38,007 nt of DNA from IMG/VR virus record IMGVR_UViG_2740892426_000005. One strand, given 5' to 3'. Both the position numbers and the translations under genes were made by a program. The DNA is from a virus. Its lineage: Duplodnaviria > Heunggongvirae > Uroviricota > Caudoviricetes. Below the pieces are notes generated by a model. The model was not told where the DNA came from. It did not search any database and saw nothing but the letters and a program-made list of their open reading frames with translations. Shown here piece by piece: positions 7,616 through 22,512 of this stretch; position 1 is the first letter of the stretch, and the number at the start of each line of letters is the position of its first letter.

Positions 7616-7804
7616 ATGCAGGACTATTTTTTGGAGTCTTTGAAGCTCCAGCGCATTGATTTTTTTCTTAAGCTTGTAGCGGCTAGTGAGTGTAGTGATG
7701 AAGAGAAGGGGCTGGCTCTGCAGTGGGTTTCTGAACTGACAGATGAACTCATGGCAAAAATCAGAACCCACGAATACAACCGCTCAATGGATGTCATCAG
7801 CTGA
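7616..7804 (+). CDS. small SOS-controlled protein (62 aa), possible Tum-like antirepressor module
   Basis: AGGAGG RBS 5 nt upstream of ATG; directly downstream of the LexA box; 186 places its LexA-controlled tum operon at this position. Function is inferred by position only. Confidence 0.45.
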   Translation: MQDYFLESLKLQRIDFFLKLVAASECSDEEKGLALQWVSELTDELMAKIRTHEYNRSMDVIS

Positions 7805-7814
7805 GGTGACTTTT

Positions 7815-8048
7815 ATGCGCATTGAAATAATGATCGATAAAGAGCAGAAGATTAGCCAGTCTACACTGGACGCCCTTGAATCCGAGCTTTACCGCAATCT
7901 GCGCCCCCTGTATCCCAAAACGGTAATCCGTATCCGTAAAGGTAGCTCTAACGGTGTGGAACTGACCGGACTGCAACCGGACGAAGAAAGAAAACAAGTG
8001 ATGAAAATTATGCAGAAGGTGTGGGAAGACGACAGCTGGCTGCATTAA
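7815..8048 (+). CDS. dinI: DinI-family protein (77 aa)
   Basis: MRIEIMIDKEQ... start and ...MQKVWEDDSWLH C-terminus resemble DinI (MRIEV... and acidic W-containing C-terminus); GAGGTGA RBS overlapping the upstream stop. Confidence 0.7.
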   Translation: MRIEIMIDKEQKISQSTLDALESELYRNLRPLYPKTVIRIRKGSSNGVELTGLQPDEERKQVMKIMQKVWEDDSWLH

Positions 8049-8492
8049 GAAATGTTGCCCCCAGGAGGATTCATTCTAATGGGGGCTAGTTTGGGCAACG
8101 AGTGAAACGAGGCGTAAGGTGGGTAATCATTTTGATAAGTGATCGCCCACTTTGTGCCAAAAGCGGACATCGCAGATATGACAATATGTTAGTCAACCGC
8201 GATTAGATCAGTCAGTTGGAGATGGGGGGAAGTTACAAAAACTTGTCGTCCGCCATCTCCGACTACGGGTATTCTTAACTGTACATGCTCTTTCAATCGA
8301 TGATTTTTGAGTAAGTGACTAACCTATTGTTTTGATAGTAATTAAACGTATAAACGTGCGGAGTTAATTTGAAAGTTATGTGTCTATGTTTGACAAGCAA
8401 AATTTTAAAGATTGGTTTTATCCACAGGTAATTTATGCTATTAATAGCCTCAAGCCCTGTAATTATTTTTATTTAAATGGATAAATTTGAAA

Positions 8493-10613
8493 ATGAGTAC
8501 ATATCATAATGATCAGCCAATACTAGGTGGTCAAAATGACCCCGATTTATTAAACAGGCTCGATTTTGCAAATCACTTGGCAAATATTCTACTATTAAAT
8601 CACAATGATGATTGCCTTACTGTATCTATAGAGGCAGAGTGGGGATATGGTAAAACGTCAGTGATAAATCTTATAAAAGGTGCTTTGAATGAAAAGGAGT
8701 TCTTACCAATAATAATAGAATATAATCCATGGCTGGCCGGTCAACCTGAATCCTTGATTCAGGATTTTTTATTACAGTTCTCTTCACAACTAAATATTAA
8801 AGACAATTCAAAAGCTGCTTTGGAAGCTTCAAAAGAATTAATTGCATACTCCAATCTCTTCAGTGTAGCAAAACTTATTCCAGGGACAGAACCTTGGGCA
8901 TCTATCATAGAAAAAGTCCTCTCTAATTTTGGGAGTGCTACTAAAAAGATTGCTGAATTAAAAAAACTGGATCTTTTAGGTAGAAAAAAACAAGTAGAGA
9001 AGGCAATAAAAAAAATAAAAAATCCTATTGTGGTAATAATTGATGATATTGATCGATTGACTCCTACAGAAACTTTTCAAGTTTTACGATTGGTTAAAGC
9101 TGTTGCAGATTTCTCAGGAACTTCTTTTTTACTTGCATTTGATCCTAATTATTTGATTTCTGTGCTTGATAAAAATAATATCGTCAATTCTTCGGAGTAT
9201 CTTAATAAAATTGTTCAACTTCGAGTCCCACTTCCTGTAATCTCAGAAAGGGGTATGAATGAACTTGCAAATGCAGAACTGGAAAAGATAGCTAATAAAT
9301 CTTTAACTGACAGATTCGAAAGTGATCAAGAAAGACTAAGCTGGATTTATCATAATTATTTTAAAAAGCTAATTAAGAATCCGAGAGAGTTAAAAAGATT
9401 TTTTAACCATTTGAGATTCGTTTTAGAGCAAATTGAAGGGCAGGTATGTTTTTCTGATCTCTTTGCTTTATCTCTGGTCGCCACTAAATCGAGTTTGGTA
9501 TACGAGCATATTAAAAGCACACCAGAGGCATATATAGGGAAGAGATTCACTAATGATGGCCTTTTGATGGATAAACCTCAAGATATTGTGGATAGATTTA
9601 GTGATGAGCGAAATAAGAAACTGAGTAATTTTTCTGATCAAGAGCGTTCAGTGATGCAGGAACTCTTAGGAGATATTTTCCCACTTCTACAGTCAAGCGG
9701 GTATTCTCATTATGGGGTTTCTGATCCCGATACAGCAGGAAGGGTTTCTGCACCACAAAGGCTTCATATTGCGTTTCATTATAAAACTCCAGCAGGGTAT
9801 ATTTCTGATCATGATATTATCAGTTTCATTAATGGAGATGTTAAAAGAAACGAATTTCTAAGAGATGTGCTCTCGCAAAATGCAGAAGAAAGATTTTTTG
9901 AAATGATGAATAATTATTCGAGTTATTGTAAGGATAATAGTTTTGAAATATTAACGTGTATTTATGATACTTTTCTGTTTTCTCAAGAATTGAAATCCTC
10001 ATTGGAAAGAAACTATGGTTTTTTGACAAAAGATCTTTATAGAAGGATGAATTGGCTCACTAATAAGGTAATATCTGAAAGTGATGATAAATATGGGTTG
10101 ATAAAGGGGGTTGTAGGTAGGCATGAGAATGCGCCACTTGGTGCAGACGTATTATGCCAAGCTCGTAAACAGATTCAAAATGGATGGAATGACAAAATAT
10201 GGGTTAGTATTGAAGAATTGGCTGAACTTGAAGGTATCTTTCAACAGGTGGCTATTAAAGTTTTAAGTGATAAAATATATTTTGATTATCATCTTGAATC
10301 TCATATATTTTTCGAATTAAAGAGAGTTTCATCTCAATTTACATCAGAGTTTATTGCTTCTGTATTATCAAGTGATGGCCTGATTAGGATGTGTGAGATT
10401 ATTGGTGAAACAGGTAGTGATTCAACAAATGGCCCTTATTTTAAGTTTGATGAAATTTACTTCGGGGAAATACTTGATGTGAATGAACTTCGAAATAAAG
10501 CGAAAAATTTAGATTTTTCAATTTATCCCACACGCATTCAAGCTGTACTTAAGAGTATTCTGGATGGACAAAAATATTATTTGAGAGATGCAACTGTTGG
10601 TGAAGATTGGTAA
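8493..10613 (+). CDS. KAP-family P-loop NTPase (706 aa), candidate accessory/defence gene
   Basis: Walker A in KAP context (EAEWGYGKTS), Walker B (VVIIDDIDR), long helical C-terminal region; AT-rich by eye. Start at ATG 8493; the ORF-track start at 8487 is a TTG. Confidence 0.7.
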   Translation: MSTYHNDQPILGGQNDPDLLNRLDFANHLANILLLNHNDDCLTVSIEAEWGYGKTSVINLIKGALNEKEFLPIIIEYNPWLAGQPESLIQDFLLQFSSQLNIKDNSKAALEASKELIAYSNLFSVAKLIPGTEPWASIIEKVLSNFGSATKKIAELKKLDLLGRKKQVEKAIKKIKNPIVVIIDDIDRLTPTETFQVLRLVKAVADFSGTSFLLAFDPNYLISVLDKNNIVNSSEYLNKIVQLRVPLPVISERGMNELANAELEKIANKSLTDRFESDQERLSWIYHNYFKKLIKNPRELKRFFNHLRFVLEQIEGQVCFSDLFALSLVATKSSLVYEHIKSTPEAYIGKRFTNDGLLMDKPQDIVDRFSDERNKKLSNFSDQERSVMQELLGDIFPLLQSSGYSHYGVSDPDTAGRVSAPQRLHIAFHYKTPAGYISDHDIISFINGDVKRNEFLRDVLSQNAEERFFEMMNNYSSYCKDNSFEILTCIYDTFLFSQELKSSLERNYGFLTKDLYRRMNWLTNKVISESDDKYGLIKGVVGRHENAPLGADVLCQARKQIQNGWNDKIWVSIEELAELEGIFQQVAIKVLSDKIYFDYHLESHIFFELKRVSSQFTSEFIASVLSSDGLIRMCEIIGETGSDSTNGPYFKFDEIYFGEILDVNELRNKAKNLDFSIYPTRIQAVLKSILDGQKYYLRDATVGEDW

Positions 10614-10753: not shown

Positions 10754-11057
10754 GAAAGCCCACTACATAGTTACACCAGAAGGAGTAACAATGTAGTGGA
10801 TAGCTAAATTTGACCACCTTAACAGATATGTTAATTTCCCCCCCCTCGCTCACAGCGGACTTTCATCTTTGTAAACCCTTATAATTCGCTTTTCAGCGGT
10901 CATTCAGATACGGATTTACGCTTTCCTTGGCAGTGCATGACTATGACGCATGAGATCGCATGATCGTTTGAGGATCGTTTTTGCTGAGGCCAGCCAGAAC
11001 TGGCGTGCTTTTGCTTATGTCATGCAGGTGCATGAAAACCACTACATAAAGTGGGCA

Positions 11058-11076
11058 GGCGTGGCGGGGATACGAT
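11058..11076. other. cos cohesive-end site GGCGTGGCGGGGATACGAT (P2/186-like)
   Basis: 16/19 match to the 186 cohesive end as I recall it (GGCGTGGCGGGGAAAGCAT); lies in the expected A-to-Q interval in a locally GC-richer patch. Confidence 0.6.
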
Positions 11077-11133
11077 TGCGCGCGCAAGCTAAAGTGGCAA
11101 TAATGAGCATGTAAGGTAAAATTCAAGGAGATT

Positions 11134-11250
11134 ATGATGTATATCTGCGAAAGTCACATTGTTGAATCAAATATAAAAACTAATTTTTTCGCAAAATATA
11201 CGAGGTATTTGTGCTTTTTGTTGTGCAGATACTGTTTGTTTAGATACTGA
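11134..11250 (+). CDS. 38-codon ORF with strong RBS (AAGGAG-N4-ATGATG), out of frame with the downstream RES ORF; possible frameshifted 5' end of that gene
   Basis: Read directly; overlaps the stop-free upstream extension (11177 onward) of the RES reading frame; T6 tract at 11184-11189 and T5 at 11215-11219. Confidence 0.35.
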   Translation: MMYICESHIVESNIKTNFFAKYTRYLCFLLCRYCLFRY

Positions 11251-11269
11251 TTCTTCAGAAGTACGTAAT

Positions 11270-12286
11270 TTGTTGAAAGCTATTCTGAGATATCATTATG
11301 ATGAAGTCGATTACAATACTCATTTTGGAGGGGAGTATTACCCGAGTTTTCTATTGGAAGATGATTTTATTTTCACCAAGGATATACAGGAGCATGATGA
11401 ATCTTTTGGGGAACTCGATAGCGAATTGTGGGATATGGCATTTGATAGTGAGGGAATAAATATTTATGCAGGCTATGGATCTGATGGTCTATATAATACG
11501 CCATATATGTCTATCAGAAATGCACATCAGCCATTTTTAGATTCTCTGTCAAAACAGCTTTCAGAAAAGAATTACCATGATTTTGAAGGTGAGCTAAGAA
11601 GTATTATAAAAGGTTATGGTGATATTTTTTCGAAGATAATAGAAGGAAGTTCTGTGGTATATAGAGCCAGAGTTGGGACTGCTGGCTATAAAACAGCACT
11701 TAGAGGATTTAGCCGTGAAGGAAAGAAAATATTTGTTCCATTTAAAGATAAGGAAATAGGAGCCGTGCCACCACTAAAGGCTACTGCTGGCAGGGCTAAT
11801 AGAGCAGGCGTTTCTTACCTTTATTGTGCTACAGATAGTTATACTGCAATTGCGGAAGTTCGACCTCATCCAACAGATGTGGTTTCAATTGGTAAATTTA
11901 GAGTTGCAAAAGCATTAAAGGTATTCGATTTTTCTTATCCTAATTTTTTAGAGTTTATTGAGAGTGATGAAAGTTTATTATCCATGATACCATATGCAAA
12001 GATGGCAGGTATTTTTAATACTGCAACTCCACCTTCCTTAGAAGGAAGATATAGTGTGTCCCAACTAATATCTGATTGTATAAGGAAAGAGGGGTATGAT
12101 GGTATACAATTTTCAAGTACAGTTGGTAAAGGTAAGAACTTGGTTGTTTTTAATCCTTCATGTATGGAATTTATAGATGGTTCATCAAAAGTAATAGAAA
12201 TTGACAAGGTTCAGTATATTTACGAGGAAAAGCAGGTTGTTGGTATGAATGATCAATGGGAGATTTATTACGATGAAGTTGAATAA
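11270..12286 (+). CDS. RES-domain protein with about 165-aa N-terminal extension (338 aa as called); candidate NAD-targeting toxin/abortive-infection effector
   Basis: RES signature residues in context: GRANRAGVSYLYCATDSYTAIAEV (Arg, Glu) and GYDGIQFSSTVGKGKNLVVF (Ser). The called start is TTG with a weak RBS; the frame is open from 11177; the first in-frame ATG is at 11435. AT-rich by eye. Confidence 0.6.
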   Translation: MLKAILRYHYDEVDYNTHFGGEYYPSFLLEDDFIFTKDIQEHDESFGELDSELWDMAFDSEGINIYAGYGSDGLYNTPYMSIRNAHQPFLDSLSKQLSEKNYHDFEGELRSIIKGYGDIFSKIIEGSSVVYRARVGTAGYKTALRGFSREGKKIFVPFKDKEIGAVPPLKATAGRANRAGVSYLYCATDSYTAIAEVRPHPTDVVSIGKFRVAKALKVFDFSYPNFLEFIESDESLLSMIPYAKMAGIFNTATPPSLEGRYSVSQLISDCIRKEGYDGIQFSSTVGKGKNLVVFNPSCMEFIDGSSKVIEIDKVQYIYEEKQVVGMNDQWEIYYDEVE

Positions 12287-12338: not shown

Positions 12339-13370
12339 TTAATCAAAGCAATATGAATTGAATGTAATTAAATCTTCACCTAGCCAATCATTGACCTCCT
12401 CCATCCTTTTTTGTAAAGGTAGCAACTCGTTTCGAACAAACACATTAGCAGCCTTCTCCACATCCCCAAATCCCCCGAGATTATTTGGCATTATCCCCAT
12501 CATCTGTGGCGGCACGCGGTGTGCTGCCATCATGTCATCGCGACTAACATTTTTGATATTCAGAAATTCATCCTTCGCCGCGACTTCTGACAACGGGATA
12601 ATCTGAAGTCCGTCCTTTTTGCCGTTCGGCGAGTACATAAACAGGTTGCGGAAGTTGCCCGGACCTTTGGCGCTTTTCATCGCATTACGGAGGTTGTTCA
12701 CATCTTCCTGGTTCTGCGCGGCATCGGTCATGTACATGATGAAGCCTGCATGACTACCGTTAATGTAATACTTCCGGCGGAACAGCGTGGCGGACTCGTT
12801 GAGCAGGGCTGACGGAATGGCAGAAAGATAACCGGGCAGGCCGTAGATCTCCTGGTTGATATCCGGTTCCATCAGGTGAAAAATGCTGCCTTTCGTGAAC
12901 TGATACGGCTGTGTAGTCATGCCGTATTGCACAAACCAGTAGGTATCCAGGTCTAACCCGCGTCGGGTGTATTTTGCCAGCGCAGGCTCAAGGGCGATAA
13001 CTTCACCGAATCGGTTCGTGCGTTTCTCCAGGTAGGCGTTACCAAATACCAGATAGTCCTGCACAAAACGTGAAAAAGCCTGCTGGCTGAGCAGCGGGTG
13101 AGGGATGTAGGTACTGGTCAGAATGTTGCACTTTACTGCAATCGGGGAACTGTGATGCACTGCAGCGCGGAAGGTGCGCGCCAGTCCGTCAAAGCTGACG
13201 GGCGGCTCATACCAACGGTCCATCTGTACGCATTCCACATAGTCCAGTAATTCTCGGCGGTCCAGAACAGGAACGGGATCGCCGAAGCTGAATGCTTCGG
13301 CTGTAGTTTGACTTTTAAGCTGGATCTGTTTCGTCGCCGCAGCGCGGTTCTTCTTACTCTTTCCCATCAA
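12339..13370 (-). CDS. Q: portal protein (343 aa)
   Basis: P2 gpQ-like size and position; coupled to P (ATGA overlap). Confidence 0.9.
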   Translation of the reverse strand: MMGKSKKNRAAATKQIQLKSQTTAEAFSFGDPVPVLDRRELLDYVECVQMDRWYEPPVSFDGLARTFRAAVHHSSPIAVKCNILTSTYIPHPLLSQQAFSRFVQDYLVFGNAYLEKRTNRFGEVIALEPALAKYTRRGLDLDTYWFVQYGMTTQPYQFTKGSIFHLMEPDINQEIYGLPGYLSAIPSALLNESATLFRRKYYINGSHAGFIMYMTDAAQNQEDVNNLRNAMKSAKGPGNFRNLFMYSPNGKKDGLQIIPLSEVAAKDEFLNIKNVSRDDMMAAHRVPPQMMGIMPNNLGGFGDVEKAANVFVRNELLPLQKRMEEVNDWLGEDLITFNSYCFD

Positions 13371-20249: not shown

Positions 20250-20643
20250 AGCGGTGCCTTATGTCCGCAATAACCCGGACAAACTGCATCTGTTTGTGGA
20301 TAACGGTTCGCTGGTTGCCACGGGGGCCAGCTCCATGTCGTGGGAGTACCGTTACACCCTGAACGCGGTGATTGAGGATTTCAGCGGCGACCAGAATCTG
20401 CTGATGGCCCCGGTTTTGCTGTGGCTGAGGGATAACCAGCCCGATGCAATCAATAACCCGGTGTTACGGGAAAAGTTATTCACCTTTGAGGTGGATATTT
20501 TGCGCAACGATGTCTGTGATATCAGCCTTAACCTGCAACTGACGGAACGTGTGCTGGTCAGCACTGACGGCACTGTGTCCAGCGTTGAAGCTGTAGCGGA
20601 ACCCGATGAACCTGAAGAAATGTGGACGGTGAAACGTGGCTGA
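20212..20643 (+). CDS. R: tail completion protein R (143 aa)
   Basis: GTG start with AGGAG 8 nt upstream (the ORF-track start at 20191 is TTG); P2 gpR-like position. Confidence 0.75.
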   Translation: MNKPQSLRHALNKAVPYVRNNPDKLHLFVDNGSLVATGASSMSWEYRYTLNAVIEDFSGDQNLLMAPVLLWLRDNQPDAINNPVLREKLFTFEVDILRNDVCDISLNLQLTERVLVSTDGTVSSVEAVAEPDEPEEMWTVKRG

Positions 20644-21082
20644 ACTGCAGAAGGTGGACGACTGGCTGAGTGCTTTGCTGGCGAATCTGGAACCAGCCGC
20701 AAGAAGCCGCATGATGCGCCAGCTGGCGCAGGAACTGCGCCGGACACAACAGCAGAATATCAGAATGCAGCGCAACCCTGACGGCAGCAGCTATGAACCT
20801 CGACGGGTAACAGCACGCAGTAAAAAGGGGCGCATCAAACGTCAGATGTTTGCAAAGCTGCGCACCACAAAATACCTGAAAACTGCAGCCAGCGCCGATT
20901 CTGCCAGCGTGCAGTTTGAAGGTAAGGTGCAGCGCATTGCCCGTGTTCACCATTACGGCCTCCGTGATCGCGTCAGTCGCAAAGGACCGGAGGTCCGCTA
21001 TGCAGAGCGCCGCCTGTTGGGTCTTAATGGTGAGTCTTATGTTCTAACTCTTGATATATTGAATAGATTCCTTCTGTCTTGA
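20636..21082 (+). CDS. S: tail completion protein S (148 aa); last ~19 codons lie in AT-rich inserted DNA
   Basis: GTG start overlapping R stop; P2 gpS-like size; 3' end overlaps the convergent membrane-protein gene by 59 nt. Confidence 0.75.
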   Translation: MAELQKVDDWLSALLANLEPAARSRMMRQLAQELRRTQQQNIRMQRNPDGSSYEPRRVTARSKKGRIKRQMFAKLRTTKYLKTAASADSASVQFEGKVQRIARVHHYGLRDRVSRKGPEVRYAERRLLGLNGESYVLTLDILNRFLLS

Positions 21083-21830
21083 ATTCACCATATGCCCAAT
21101 GAATTGCATTTTTTTGTTCAGTTAGAATATATTTCCTAACTTTTTTAGAATAGTGAATGGTCAGTATAAAACCCAAAGAAATCCATAATAGAATAAATAT
21201 AGTTGTTGGGGCAAAGGAATAGATAAAAAATTTGTCTTTAACGAAATTCTTGACTTCTTCATCAATGTAAGCATTCCCTTCATCAGTGGTTAGTAGTTTA
21301 CAAAGAATTTCTTTATGTTCGATAGTTAATGATTTGTACTTCTCTGTACTGGCAGAGGATGACTCTTCGCAATCATCCTTTGATATTTCCCAATCAGGAG
21401 TGGTTAATATTGTAGCTGCAGTCGCCATTTTTTTTGACATATAAAATGATTCACCGGACTTTATCCAATAAAGCAATGTGCTATTTGGTGGGGTTCTAAT
21501 GGCTTGGATGAAAACTGGACCAAAAAGATAAATTGCACACAAAAAAAGAAGCGAAAATAGAACCGTGATTGATTTTTCAGCCCATGTGATAGTAGGCAGC
21601 TTTTTTAATGATATTTTTATAAGAAAAAAATTTAATATAAACGCAGGTATTCCTGATTTTTTCAAAATTACATCATGAGATTTTCTATATTTGAATAGTG
21701 CTCTTATAACTATCGTCACCAAAGTTATAACAGCTCCAATAATGGAAATCCATGCGGCAAGTGCCGCTGCCGGGGTGTTTAAAAATTCAGCATTAAATAT
21801 ATTAGAACTTATTGGATTCATAACACTCAT
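21024..21830 (-). CDS. accessory membrane protein (268 aa, about 3 TM helices), AT-rich insertion between S and V
   Basis: AGGTGG RBS before ATG 21830; hydrophobic segments at about residues 20-44, 86-108 and 201-224; AT-rich by eye; this is the position of the nonessential orf30 in P2. Confidence 0.6.
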   Translation of the reverse strand: MSVMNPISSNIFNAEFLNTPAAALAAWISIIGAVITLVTIVIRALFKYRKSHDVILKKSGIPAFILNFFLIKISLKKLPTITWAEKSITVLFSLLFLCAIYLFGPVFIQAIRTPPNSTLLYWIKSGESFYMSKKMATAATILTTPDWEISKDDCEESSSASTEKYKSLTIEHKEILCKLLTTDEGNAYIDEEVKNFVKDKFFIYSFAPTTIFILLWISLGFILTIHYSKKVRKYILTEQKNAIHWAYGEFKTEGIYSIYQELEHKTHH

Positions 21831-21869
21831 TTATCCACCTATTGGTTGTTTTTTATCCTTTTGTCAATT

Positions 21870-21887
21870 TGTACCATCGATACCACA
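21870..21887 (+). promoter_or_regulatory. Ogr-type late activator site TGT-N12-ACA upstream of V
   Basis: TGTACCATCGATACCACA, ending 46 nt before the V start codon. Confidence 0.5.
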
Positions 21888-21933
21888 ATTTGCAAGAAGT
21901 TATAAACAAGTTTTCATCTGTCATCATATATCT

Positions 21934-22512
21934 ATGAACGCACAATTAACCGAAATCATGCGCCTTATCACCAATCTGATCCGCACAGGTGTAGTCACCG
22001 AAGTGGACCGGGAAAACTGGCTTTGTCGGGTGAAAACGGGCGACCTTGAAACCAACTGGATTAACTGGCTGACGCTGCGCGCGGGTAATGCCCGCACATG
22101 GTGGAAACCATCGGAAGGTGAGCAGGTGGTGCTGCTGAGTCTGGGCGGCAATCTGGAGACTGCCTTTGCGTTGCCCGCCATCTATTCGAATCAGTTCGCT
22201 CCACCGTCGACGTCGGCGGACGCCTGCGTGACAGAACATCCTGACGGCGGCTGGTTTGAATATGAACCCGCCACCGGGCGCTGGTATGTCAGGGGCATCA
22301 AATCAATGGTCATTGAGGCCGCTGACAACATCACCATGAAAACCAGTGAGTTTGTACTGGAGGCTGACCGCACGCGCATTAACAGCGAAGTGGTGATCAA
22401 TGGTGGCGTTACCCAGGGCGGCGGAGCGATGAGTTCTAACGGGATCGTGGTTGATGCGCATCAGCATACTGGCGTCCTGAAAGGCGGCGATACAACCGGA
22501 GGCCCGGTATGA
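21934..22512 (+). CDS. V: baseplate spike/assembly protein V (192 aa)
   Basis: P2 gpV-like; start at ATG 21934 (the ORF-track upstream extension reads through the promoter region). Confidence 0.85.
   Translation: MNAQLTEIMRLITNLIRTGVVTEVDRENWLCRVKTGDLETNWINWLTLRAGNARTWWKPSEGEQVVLLSLGGNLETAFALPAIYSNQFAPPSTSADACVTEHPDGGWFEYEPATGRWYVRGIKSMVIEAADNITMKTSEFVLEADRTRINSEVVINGGVTQGGGAMSSNGIVVDAHQHTGVLKGGDTTGGPV

Follow-up and report, generated by a model that had tools for sequence, protein, structure and literature searches.

The virus record IMGVR_UViG_2740892426_000005 (Caudoviricetes), a 38,007-nucleotide (nt) stretch that was analyzed whole and is herein called the window, is a P2/186-like prophage, P2-family and of the 186 type, in which Int, CI, CII, the gpA replication endonuclease and DinI are followed by Q, P, O, N and M. 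In the slot between the cos block and Q lies a gene that, in its intact form, encodes a protein of 384 amino acids (aa) composed of a zinc ribbon, a mostly helical N-terminal domain and a C-terminal RES domain, and that we compare here with aRES, the stand-alone RES proteins with Pfam domain PF18870 named by Osterman et al. (bioRxiv, 28 January 2026; doi 10.64898/2026.01.28.702374). The parts of this gene and the signals around it are as follows.

11094..11122, + strand: weak sigma-70-like promoter match, GTGGCA-17-TAAAAT, just 5' of the Shine-Dalgarno sequence; a consensus match only, shuffled sequences having given more such sites
11125..11130, + strand: Shine-Dalgarno sequence AAGGAG, 3 or 6 nt before the tandem ATG ATG (11134-11139), conserved in loci L001 and L002
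11134..12286, + strand: aRES-like gene (zinc ribbon, helical N-terminal domain, RES domain), 384 aa when intact (WP_077758113), here with a -2 frameshift
11134..11239, + strand: zinc-ribbon coding part, C5-x2-H8 ... C27-x2-C30/C31 ... C36, split by the frameshift
11175..11179, + strand: homopolymer A5, the frameshift site; A7 in intact alleles, A6 in one other assembly
11249..11629, + strand: mostly helical N-terminal domain, residues ~40-166, with the motif R-Y-H-Y-x-E-x-x-Y-N-x-H-x-G-G and the invariant N147
11270..12286, + strand: mechanical open reading frame (ORF), 338 aa from TTG, equal to residues 47-384 of the intact protein; product identical to P0382 / OAO48288.1
11630..12199, + strand: RES / ADP-ribosyltransferase-fold domain, with active-site codons for R178 (11663-65), R180 (11669-71), R221 (11792-94), Y231 (11822-24), E242 (11855-57) and S329 (12116-18)

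A sequence-only reading of the window had placed a functional gene at 11270-12286. The reported ORF does exist in the ORF listing, but TTG 11270 is merely the first start codon past a stop: no Shine-Dalgarno sequence was found upstream of it when the sequence was inspected for one, and the reading frame stays open upstream to 11177, through a segment that encodes a cysteine-rich stretch. The native start is the ATG at 11134/11137 behind AAGGAG. At this locus, five complete Escherichia coli genomes (including L001, L002 and L013) are annotated with a 1155-nt gene for a 384-aa "RES family NAD+ phosphorylase", the protein being WP_077758113 in four of them, and a sixth E. coli genome (L003) has an 82%-identical allele, WP_233039108; the respective N-termini, MMYICESH and MFICENH, each stand behind AAGGAG.

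Alignment with these relatives sets the A5 of the window at 11175-11179 against A7, a 2-bp deletion in a tract that occupies codons 14-16 of the RES gene, and over 13.8 kb this deletion and a single substitution are all that separate the window from E. coli K56-43-un. Translation from ATG 11134 ends after 38 codons in the window, and residues 1-46, which include the invariant zinc ribbon, are missing from the 338-aa ORF. Because contraction of the A7 tract by 2 bp cuts off the start codon, together with the first zinc knuckle, from the rest of the gene, a functional protein from the window copy is unlikely, and both the start coordinate and the functional status assigned in the sequence-only reading need to be revised. 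Sequencing error is ruled out as the cause of the frameshift, since the truncated allele recurs in independent assemblies: the exact truncated product occurs on at least five independent contigs from different samples, and alignment of such loci gave A5 in four and A6 in a fifth. Programmed frameshifting is likewise ruled out, given that conservation of the tract does not extend to the 82%-identical allele and that most alleles are simply in frame; within the 90%-identity cluster, intact alleles of 383/384 aa are found on ~275 contigs and truncated ones on ~9 (~3% of carriers). The tract, compared at window 11175-11179, L015:2905-2911 and L016-L019, thus has at least two separate out-of-frame alleles (A5 and A6) in prophages that are nearly identical elsewhere, and the window most likely carries a minority loss-of-function allele that arose from a slippage-prone tract.

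The assignment of a RES domain, already proposed from the motifs GRANRAG, YLY, AIAEV, QFSS and NLVVF, holds up on formal search. The C-terminal half scores 67.2 bits (cutoff 23.2; E = 2.1e-18) in the Pfam RES family PF08808, which each of the 42 aligned homologues also matches; the motifs are present, and their key residues do not vary among these homologues. Among the 42 sequences, R178, R180, R221, Y231, E242 and S329 (384-aa numbering) are invariant, and the full set of invariant positions in the RES part (P0001 numbering) comprises R177, R179, G219, R220, N222, R223, Y230, E241, R243, S328 and N335. The MbcT equivalents of R221, E242, S329, R178/R180 and Y231 are R47, E69, S126, R27 and Y58, respectively, and R27, R47 and Y58 are essential in MbcT. 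The protein has the RES/ADP-ribosyltransferase three-dimensional fold, and its kinship to the RES toxins is visible only at that level; a profile search of Protein Data Bank (PDB) sequences returned chance matches only, and a fold search of BFVD returned only low-TM matches to ADP-ribosyltransferase domains.

About 165 residues precede the RES domain, as the sequence-only reading had noted, to which the zinc ribbon lost from the window allele has to be added; their fold, which had been called unrecognised, is probably HEPN/RES-NTD1-like. HEPN/RES-NTD1 (Pfam PF18870) is a mostly helical domain of ~100 aa described in fusion with RES (Anantharaman et al. 2013, Biol Direct 8:15, PMC3710099). The helical N-terminal domain found here is likely a divergent version of it, with R52, E57, Y60 and G65 (within RYHYxEWxYNxHxGG) and N146 invariant in the 42 members (P0001 numbering), and ahead of it C4, C26 and C29 (same numbering) are invariant in a CxxC/H...CxxC zinc ribbon, which takes the form of a beta-hairpin/helix knuckle in the AlphaFold2 (AF2) model with a pLDDT of ~95. 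Searching with the intact protein retrieved 123 relatives, ~80 of them full-length (~375-410 aa, covering the whole query), from E. coli, Yersinia, Proteus, Serratia, Aeromonas, Flavobacterium, Pedobacter and Chryseobacterium. Among 50,697 phage records searched with tblastn and megablast, matches were confined to the cos block and to two hits in RES alone, with no copy of the full-length gene. When the N-terminal 175 residues alone were used as a profile against 1.84 billion representatives, 262 clusters matched; of the 150 best-scoring representatives 141 were newly retrieved, and every one of these of at least 270 aa also carries RES, with no fusion to HEPN, TIR, nucleases or other effectors seen among the 141. 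Because all of the best-scoring representatives of this length that were examined carry RES, the N-terminal module appears, within that set, to be dedicated to RES and not swapped among effectors.

The best-characterized relatives of this architecture are the aRES proteins. Three enterobacterial aRES proteins gave E. coli protection from a diversity of phages, accompanied by growth arrest, and in aRES cells infected with T7 the NAD+ level fell while ADP-ribose-1''-phosphate (ADPR-1''-phosphate, ADPR-1P) rose, NAD+ being converted to nicotinamide and ADPR-1''-phosphate (Osterman et al. 2026). Point mutations in the active site abolish defence, those listed in the plasmid table being R182A, R184A, R215A, Y225A, E236A and S334A; the gene alone was reported to be clonable and maintained without growth defect, and phages counter it with NARP2, a NARP1-linked Macro phosphatase and aRad1 inhibitors (Osterman et al. 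2026). Members of the group were selected in the preprint as stand-alone RES proteins of 300-600 aa, with no operon partner, in which hhsearch detected an N-terminal PF18870 with a probability above 80%. For RES, the Methods of the preprint print the Pfam accession PF00808 (Osterman et al. 2026); the correct one, to be used in any rerun of its filter, is PF08808.

In profile-profile comparison (hhalign), our family and the aRES family align with 100% probability (E = 8.4e-41) over 330 collinear columns (positions 1-354 against 1-364), which run from the first zinc knuckle through the whole of RES. The N-terminal regions alone, whole zinc ribbon included, align with the aRES family at 97.6% (E = 3.5e-12), and the PF18870-equivalent segment aligns at 67.9% (E = 4.8e-5; reversed control 1.1%). 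R178, R180, R221, Y231, E242 and S329 fall on R182, R184, R215, Y225, E236 and S334 of the UC5 aRES, that is, on all six residues mutated in the preprint, and C8, C11, C31 and C34, the aRES counterparts of our zinc-ribbon residues, do not vary within that family. In the AF2 model of an aRES 98% identical to the UC5 type, the first ~170 residues match ours in how their secondary-structure elements are ordered and spaced.

The two groups are therefore alike in the order of their parts (a CxxC/H...CxxC zinc ribbon, a helical N-terminal domain, then RES), in aligning over their whole length as profiles with the six active-site residues kept, and in being encoded by stand-alone genes in defence islands or hotspots with no antitoxin. 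They differ in that this clade is shorter (~384 aa against ~459 aa) and without the beta-rich C-terminal extension of aRES, has a beta-hairpin in place of the helical insert between the RAR strand and the GR.N motif, is only ~31% identical in RES, and has a helical N-terminal region diverged beyond pairwise detection; the copy in the window, in addition, is frameshifted. With the HEPN/RES-NTD1 architectures it shares the layout of an N-terminal domain followed by RES, and distant full-length homologues of our protein carry PF18870. By hmmscan, PF18870 goes unseen in our protein itself, as it does in the closest relatives of the UC5 aRES, and among the best-scoring matches examined this version of the N-terminal domain is always joined to RES, with no HEPN or other effector. 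On these sequence comparisons, we conclude that the family forms a sister clade of aRES, shorter and divergent, that shares its architecture and catalytic residues. The sequence-only reading had taken the combination to be a system not known to be characterized; the architecture was in fact described in 2013 (PMC3710099), the locus arrangement was tabulated in 2022 (Rousset et al. 2022, Table S5A) and aRES was characterized in 2026. PADLOC-DB (2023) has no match for this protein nor for validated-type aRES, and is uninformative here, as it predates aRES.

The genomic setting is that of defence cargo. The gpA-cos-gpQ region of P2-like phages is a defence hotspot, and the exact arrangement of our locus appears in Table S5A of the study that established this, where its rarity kept it from being curated or tested (Rousset et al. 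2022). As the sequence-only reading had observed, the gene is AT-rich and opposed to Q: its GC content is 0.35-0.37 against 0.52-0.60 in phage core genes, it sits in an AT-rich stretch at ~8.0-12.5 kb (GC 0.32-0.41; phage structural genes, 0.52-0.60), and it is convergent with Q (12339..13370, - strand), with only 52 bp between the two stop codons. In E. coli NCTC9041 (L014, 3108-4647), the cos-Q slot beside the same KAP NTPase as in the window (described below) instead holds a 191-aa phosphoribosyltransferase (PRTase), which is unannotated in RefSeq, and DprA, a pair that is ShosT/ShosA-like by PADLOC, and such a PRTase and DprA gene pair has been validated as a defence system (Rousset et al. 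2022); the slot thus exchanges defence cargo. Homologues 45-50% identical occupy other accessory positions, in Yersinia proxima (L004, 6001-7143) adjoining the integrase of a 186-like prophage, on its outer side, and in Proteus mirabilis (L006, 5254-7176) after ogr of a P2-like prophage, beside a HamC-like DUF3223 gene, and the occupation of these two further positions shows that the family moves between prophage hotspots. Those of Flavobacterium and Pedobacter lie in defence islands with Shedu, OLD-like ATPase-Toprim, NERD, Mrr, DUF4238 and AbiEii genes. Like other cargo of the gpA-cos-gpQ region (old, tin, DprA-PRTase, DUF4238 and others), the gene is a small AT-rich insert of one or a few genes in the same hotspot, from which it differs in protein family and mechanism. 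Across nine loci from five genera (E. coli, Yersinia, Proteus, Flavobacterium and Pedobacter), no conserved neighbour was found, and since the neighbours differ from locus to locus and the positions vary, the gene is, as judged from its contexts, an autonomous single-gene cargo of defence hotspots.

We hypothesize, with a probability of about 0.68, that the locus is a horizontally acquired, single-gene, aRES-type anti-phage module in the cos-Q slot, of which the window holds a loss-of-function copy. In the intact 384-aa protein, the zinc ribbon and the HEPN/RES-NTD1-related helical domain would, to judge from anatomy, silence the enzyme and sense infection. Upon infection, the RES domain would cleave NAD+ to nicotinamide and ADPR-1P, as suggested by homology to aRES, MbcT and Res, and the resulting depletion of NAD+ would, by the same homology, arrest the infected cell and so amount to abortive infection. 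An antitoxin would not be needed, since control would be intramolecular; indeed, the intact gene is carried on ~275 contigs without an antitoxin, which argues that the full-length protein is not constitutively toxic. The sequence-only proposal of a self-contained sensor joined to an NAD-depleting abortive-infection effector matches this homology to aRES, the end-to-end alignment and the defence hotspots, and fails for the allele in the window, which is frameshifted.

Several observations weigh against this hypothesis. Without the zinc ribbon, the N-terminal similarity to aRES is not significant (E = 0.046 and 0.006; probability 1-6%), and BLASTP against the UC5 aRES aligns RES only (31% identity over 157 aa, E = 1e-12), leaving the N-terminal domain unaligned. 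PF18870 was not found in this protein by hmmscan, which detects it in one of the 42 family members (E = 0.03). This clade is without the beta-rich extension of ~100 aa found at the C-terminus of UC5-type aRES, the three proteins tested in the aRES study include no member of the clade, and the trigger is not named in the preprint (Osterman et al. 2026). Autoinhibition and sensing are presumably functions of the N-terminal region, as we infer from its layout, and the truncated ORF may keep some residual function. Finally, phosphorolysis, hydrolysis and protein ADP-ribosylation are not told apart by sequence, and ParT, itself a RES protein, ADP-ribosylates Prs.

This last point leads to the first alternative, in which the RES domain would ADP-ribosylate proteins, as ParT does, or simply be an NAD(P)+ glycohydrolase, instead of acting as an NAD+ phosphorylase, the gene still being a single-gene defence system or toxin that acts on another target. 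We regard such chemistry as doubtful, given that the closest characterized full-length relatives, the aRES proteins, make ADPR-1P and that all six of their mutated active-site residues are conserved here. It is also conceivable, if unlikely, that the short clade is a functionally distinct offshoot of aRES, answering to another phage cue or having another product or target, in which the A-tract would be an on/off switch sparing P2-like prophages the cost of an NADase, such as self-triggering on induction.

Two further alternatives concern the copy in the window. The 338-aa ORF, or a product from another internal start, might be expressed as an N-terminally truncated RES protein that is deregulated or senses differently, so that the window copy would be functional. 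Its 338 codons are open, it is unchanged on at least five independent contigs and a second promoter-like match (11273-11302) overlaps its start; we nonetheless hold this to be quite unlikely, because TTG 11270 has no Shine-Dalgarno sequence, the lost segment contains three invariant zinc-ribbon cysteines, the allele is found in only ~3% of carriers, and A5 and A6 are both out of frame, as inactivation predicts. Very unlikely, in our estimation, is a role of the A-tract as a contingency (phase-variation) switch for an abortive-infection gene that is costly in lysogens, for example because it might trigger itself at prophage induction. The three lengths (A7, A6 and A5) at the same site in otherwise near-identical prophages, and the recurrence of both frameshift alleles in public assemblies, would fit such a switch; against it stand the lack of conservation of the tract in the 82%-identical L003 allele, the ~97% of contigs that carry the intact allele, the possibility that the A5 contigs are one clone, and the tract itself, A7 being short for a contingency locus. 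A minority loss-of-function allele of an aRES-type module accordingly remains our reading of the window copy, and the surroundings of the gene bear on whether a partner gene could have been overlooked. The features between the replication genes and the start of the RES gene are these.

8487..10613, + strand: PifA-like KAP P-loop NTPase (Pfam KAP_NTPase 2e-46; PADLOC PifA 1e-64), across cos from the RES gene
10932..11087, no strand assigned: cos region, shared at 91-95% identity by P2-like phages and by hundreds of RES-less E. coli prophages
10950..11114, + strand: annotated 54-aa ORF (WP_164965840), overlapping the cos block and annotated in some RefSeq records

Within the cos region, positions 11058-11076 contain GGCGTGGCGGGGATACGAT, a putative cohesive-end core of the P2/186 kind. 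Between cos and the RES start codon there is space only for the promoter-like site and the Shine-Dalgarno sequence. No Xre/DUF2384 (COG5642) gene is present between cos and Q or adjacent to the RES gene, which agrees with the sequence-only reading on this point. The 54-aa ORF gave no significant family match and is mostly unannotated in prophages that share the cos block but not RES; it is probably a spurious call, and it was rejected as an antitoxin on these grounds and because it lies in the conserved cos block of hundreds of RES-less prophages.

The match of the KAP NTPase (706/708 aa) to the PifA model is confined to its N-terminal 450 residues. The NTPase is widespread in P2-like prophages of E. 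coli, and both in many E. coli genomes (H7-H22) and in NCTC9041 the same gene is present with no RES gene. Conversely, RES occurs without KAP: across cos from it lie a PDC-S49 P-loop NTPase in NRZ14408 and a 141-aa hypothetical protein in 19KM2415N, a 55%-identical RES allele has PDC-S42 and a 148-aa protein beside it, and some RES loci have no NTPase at all. The co-dependence of RES on the KAP NTPase that had been suggested is thus contradicted by genes that assort independently and are separated by cos, and the KAP NTPase is, by this distribution, separate hotspot cargo, a candidate defence gene in its own right that lies on the gpA side of cos.

The Xre-RES type II toxins, namely MbcT (Mycobacterium tuberculosis), Res (Pseudomonas putida), ParT (Sphingobium) and NatT (Pseudomonas aeruginosa), are small single-domain proteins (~150-250 aa) with an adjacent, co-oriented Xre/DUF2384 antitoxin gene in a toxin-antitoxin operon, in contrast to a 384-aa protein with ~165 additional N-terminal residues that include a helical domain, plus a zinc ribbon, that is encoded in a prophage hotspot or defence island and matches no PDB chain at the sequence level. 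That the gene should be the toxin of a toxin-antitoxin or addiction module with an unrecognised antitoxin (a small ORF, a small RNA, the 54-aa ORF at 10950-11114 or the KAP NTPase), as the pairing of characterized RES toxins with Xre-type antitoxins and the annotation of that ORF just upstream in some records might suggest, is very improbable in view of the presence of the ORF inside the cos block of RES-less prophages and its want of a family match, the 52-bp gap to the Q stop, the different neighbours in every lineage and the independent assortment of KAP and RES.

Two other features of the window deserve mention. A second AT-rich insert (21024-21830, - strand; GC 0.34) lies between a 148-aa ORF (20636..21082, + strand) and a 273-aa ORF (21691..22512, + strand), which we take, from P2 gene order, to be tail-completion gene S and baseplate gene V, respectively. 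Its 268-aa product is hydrophobic, matches DUF6216 (E = 4e-13) and has no PADLOC match; it is probably membrane-associated, and its gene may be another moron. The DinI-like ORF at 7743-8048 (+ strand) is 101 aa long from its first ATG, compared with 77 aa (234 nt) as annotated in relatives, and the Pfam DinI match covers only residues 38-100 of the 101-aa version.

This kind of gene, having been catalogued in 2013 and 2022 and characterized in 2026, is a real find that is largely already explained, and the interest that remains attaches to the short clade itself, its divergent N-terminal domain and the recurring A-tract alleles. For annotation, the 338-aa ORF is a truncated remnant, and genes for antitoxin-less "RES family NAD+ phosphorylases" are better read as aRES-like than as orphan toxins of toxin-antitoxin systems. 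The clade is carried by P2/186-like prophages, at three or more accessory positions, and by Bacteroidota defence islands, and the NAD+ phosphorolysis of the aRES type is not repairable by phage NARP1. If the intact allele defends, the aRES mechanism would extend to a second, shorter clade, and comparison of the N-terminal domains of the two clades could help to find what aRES proteins sense.

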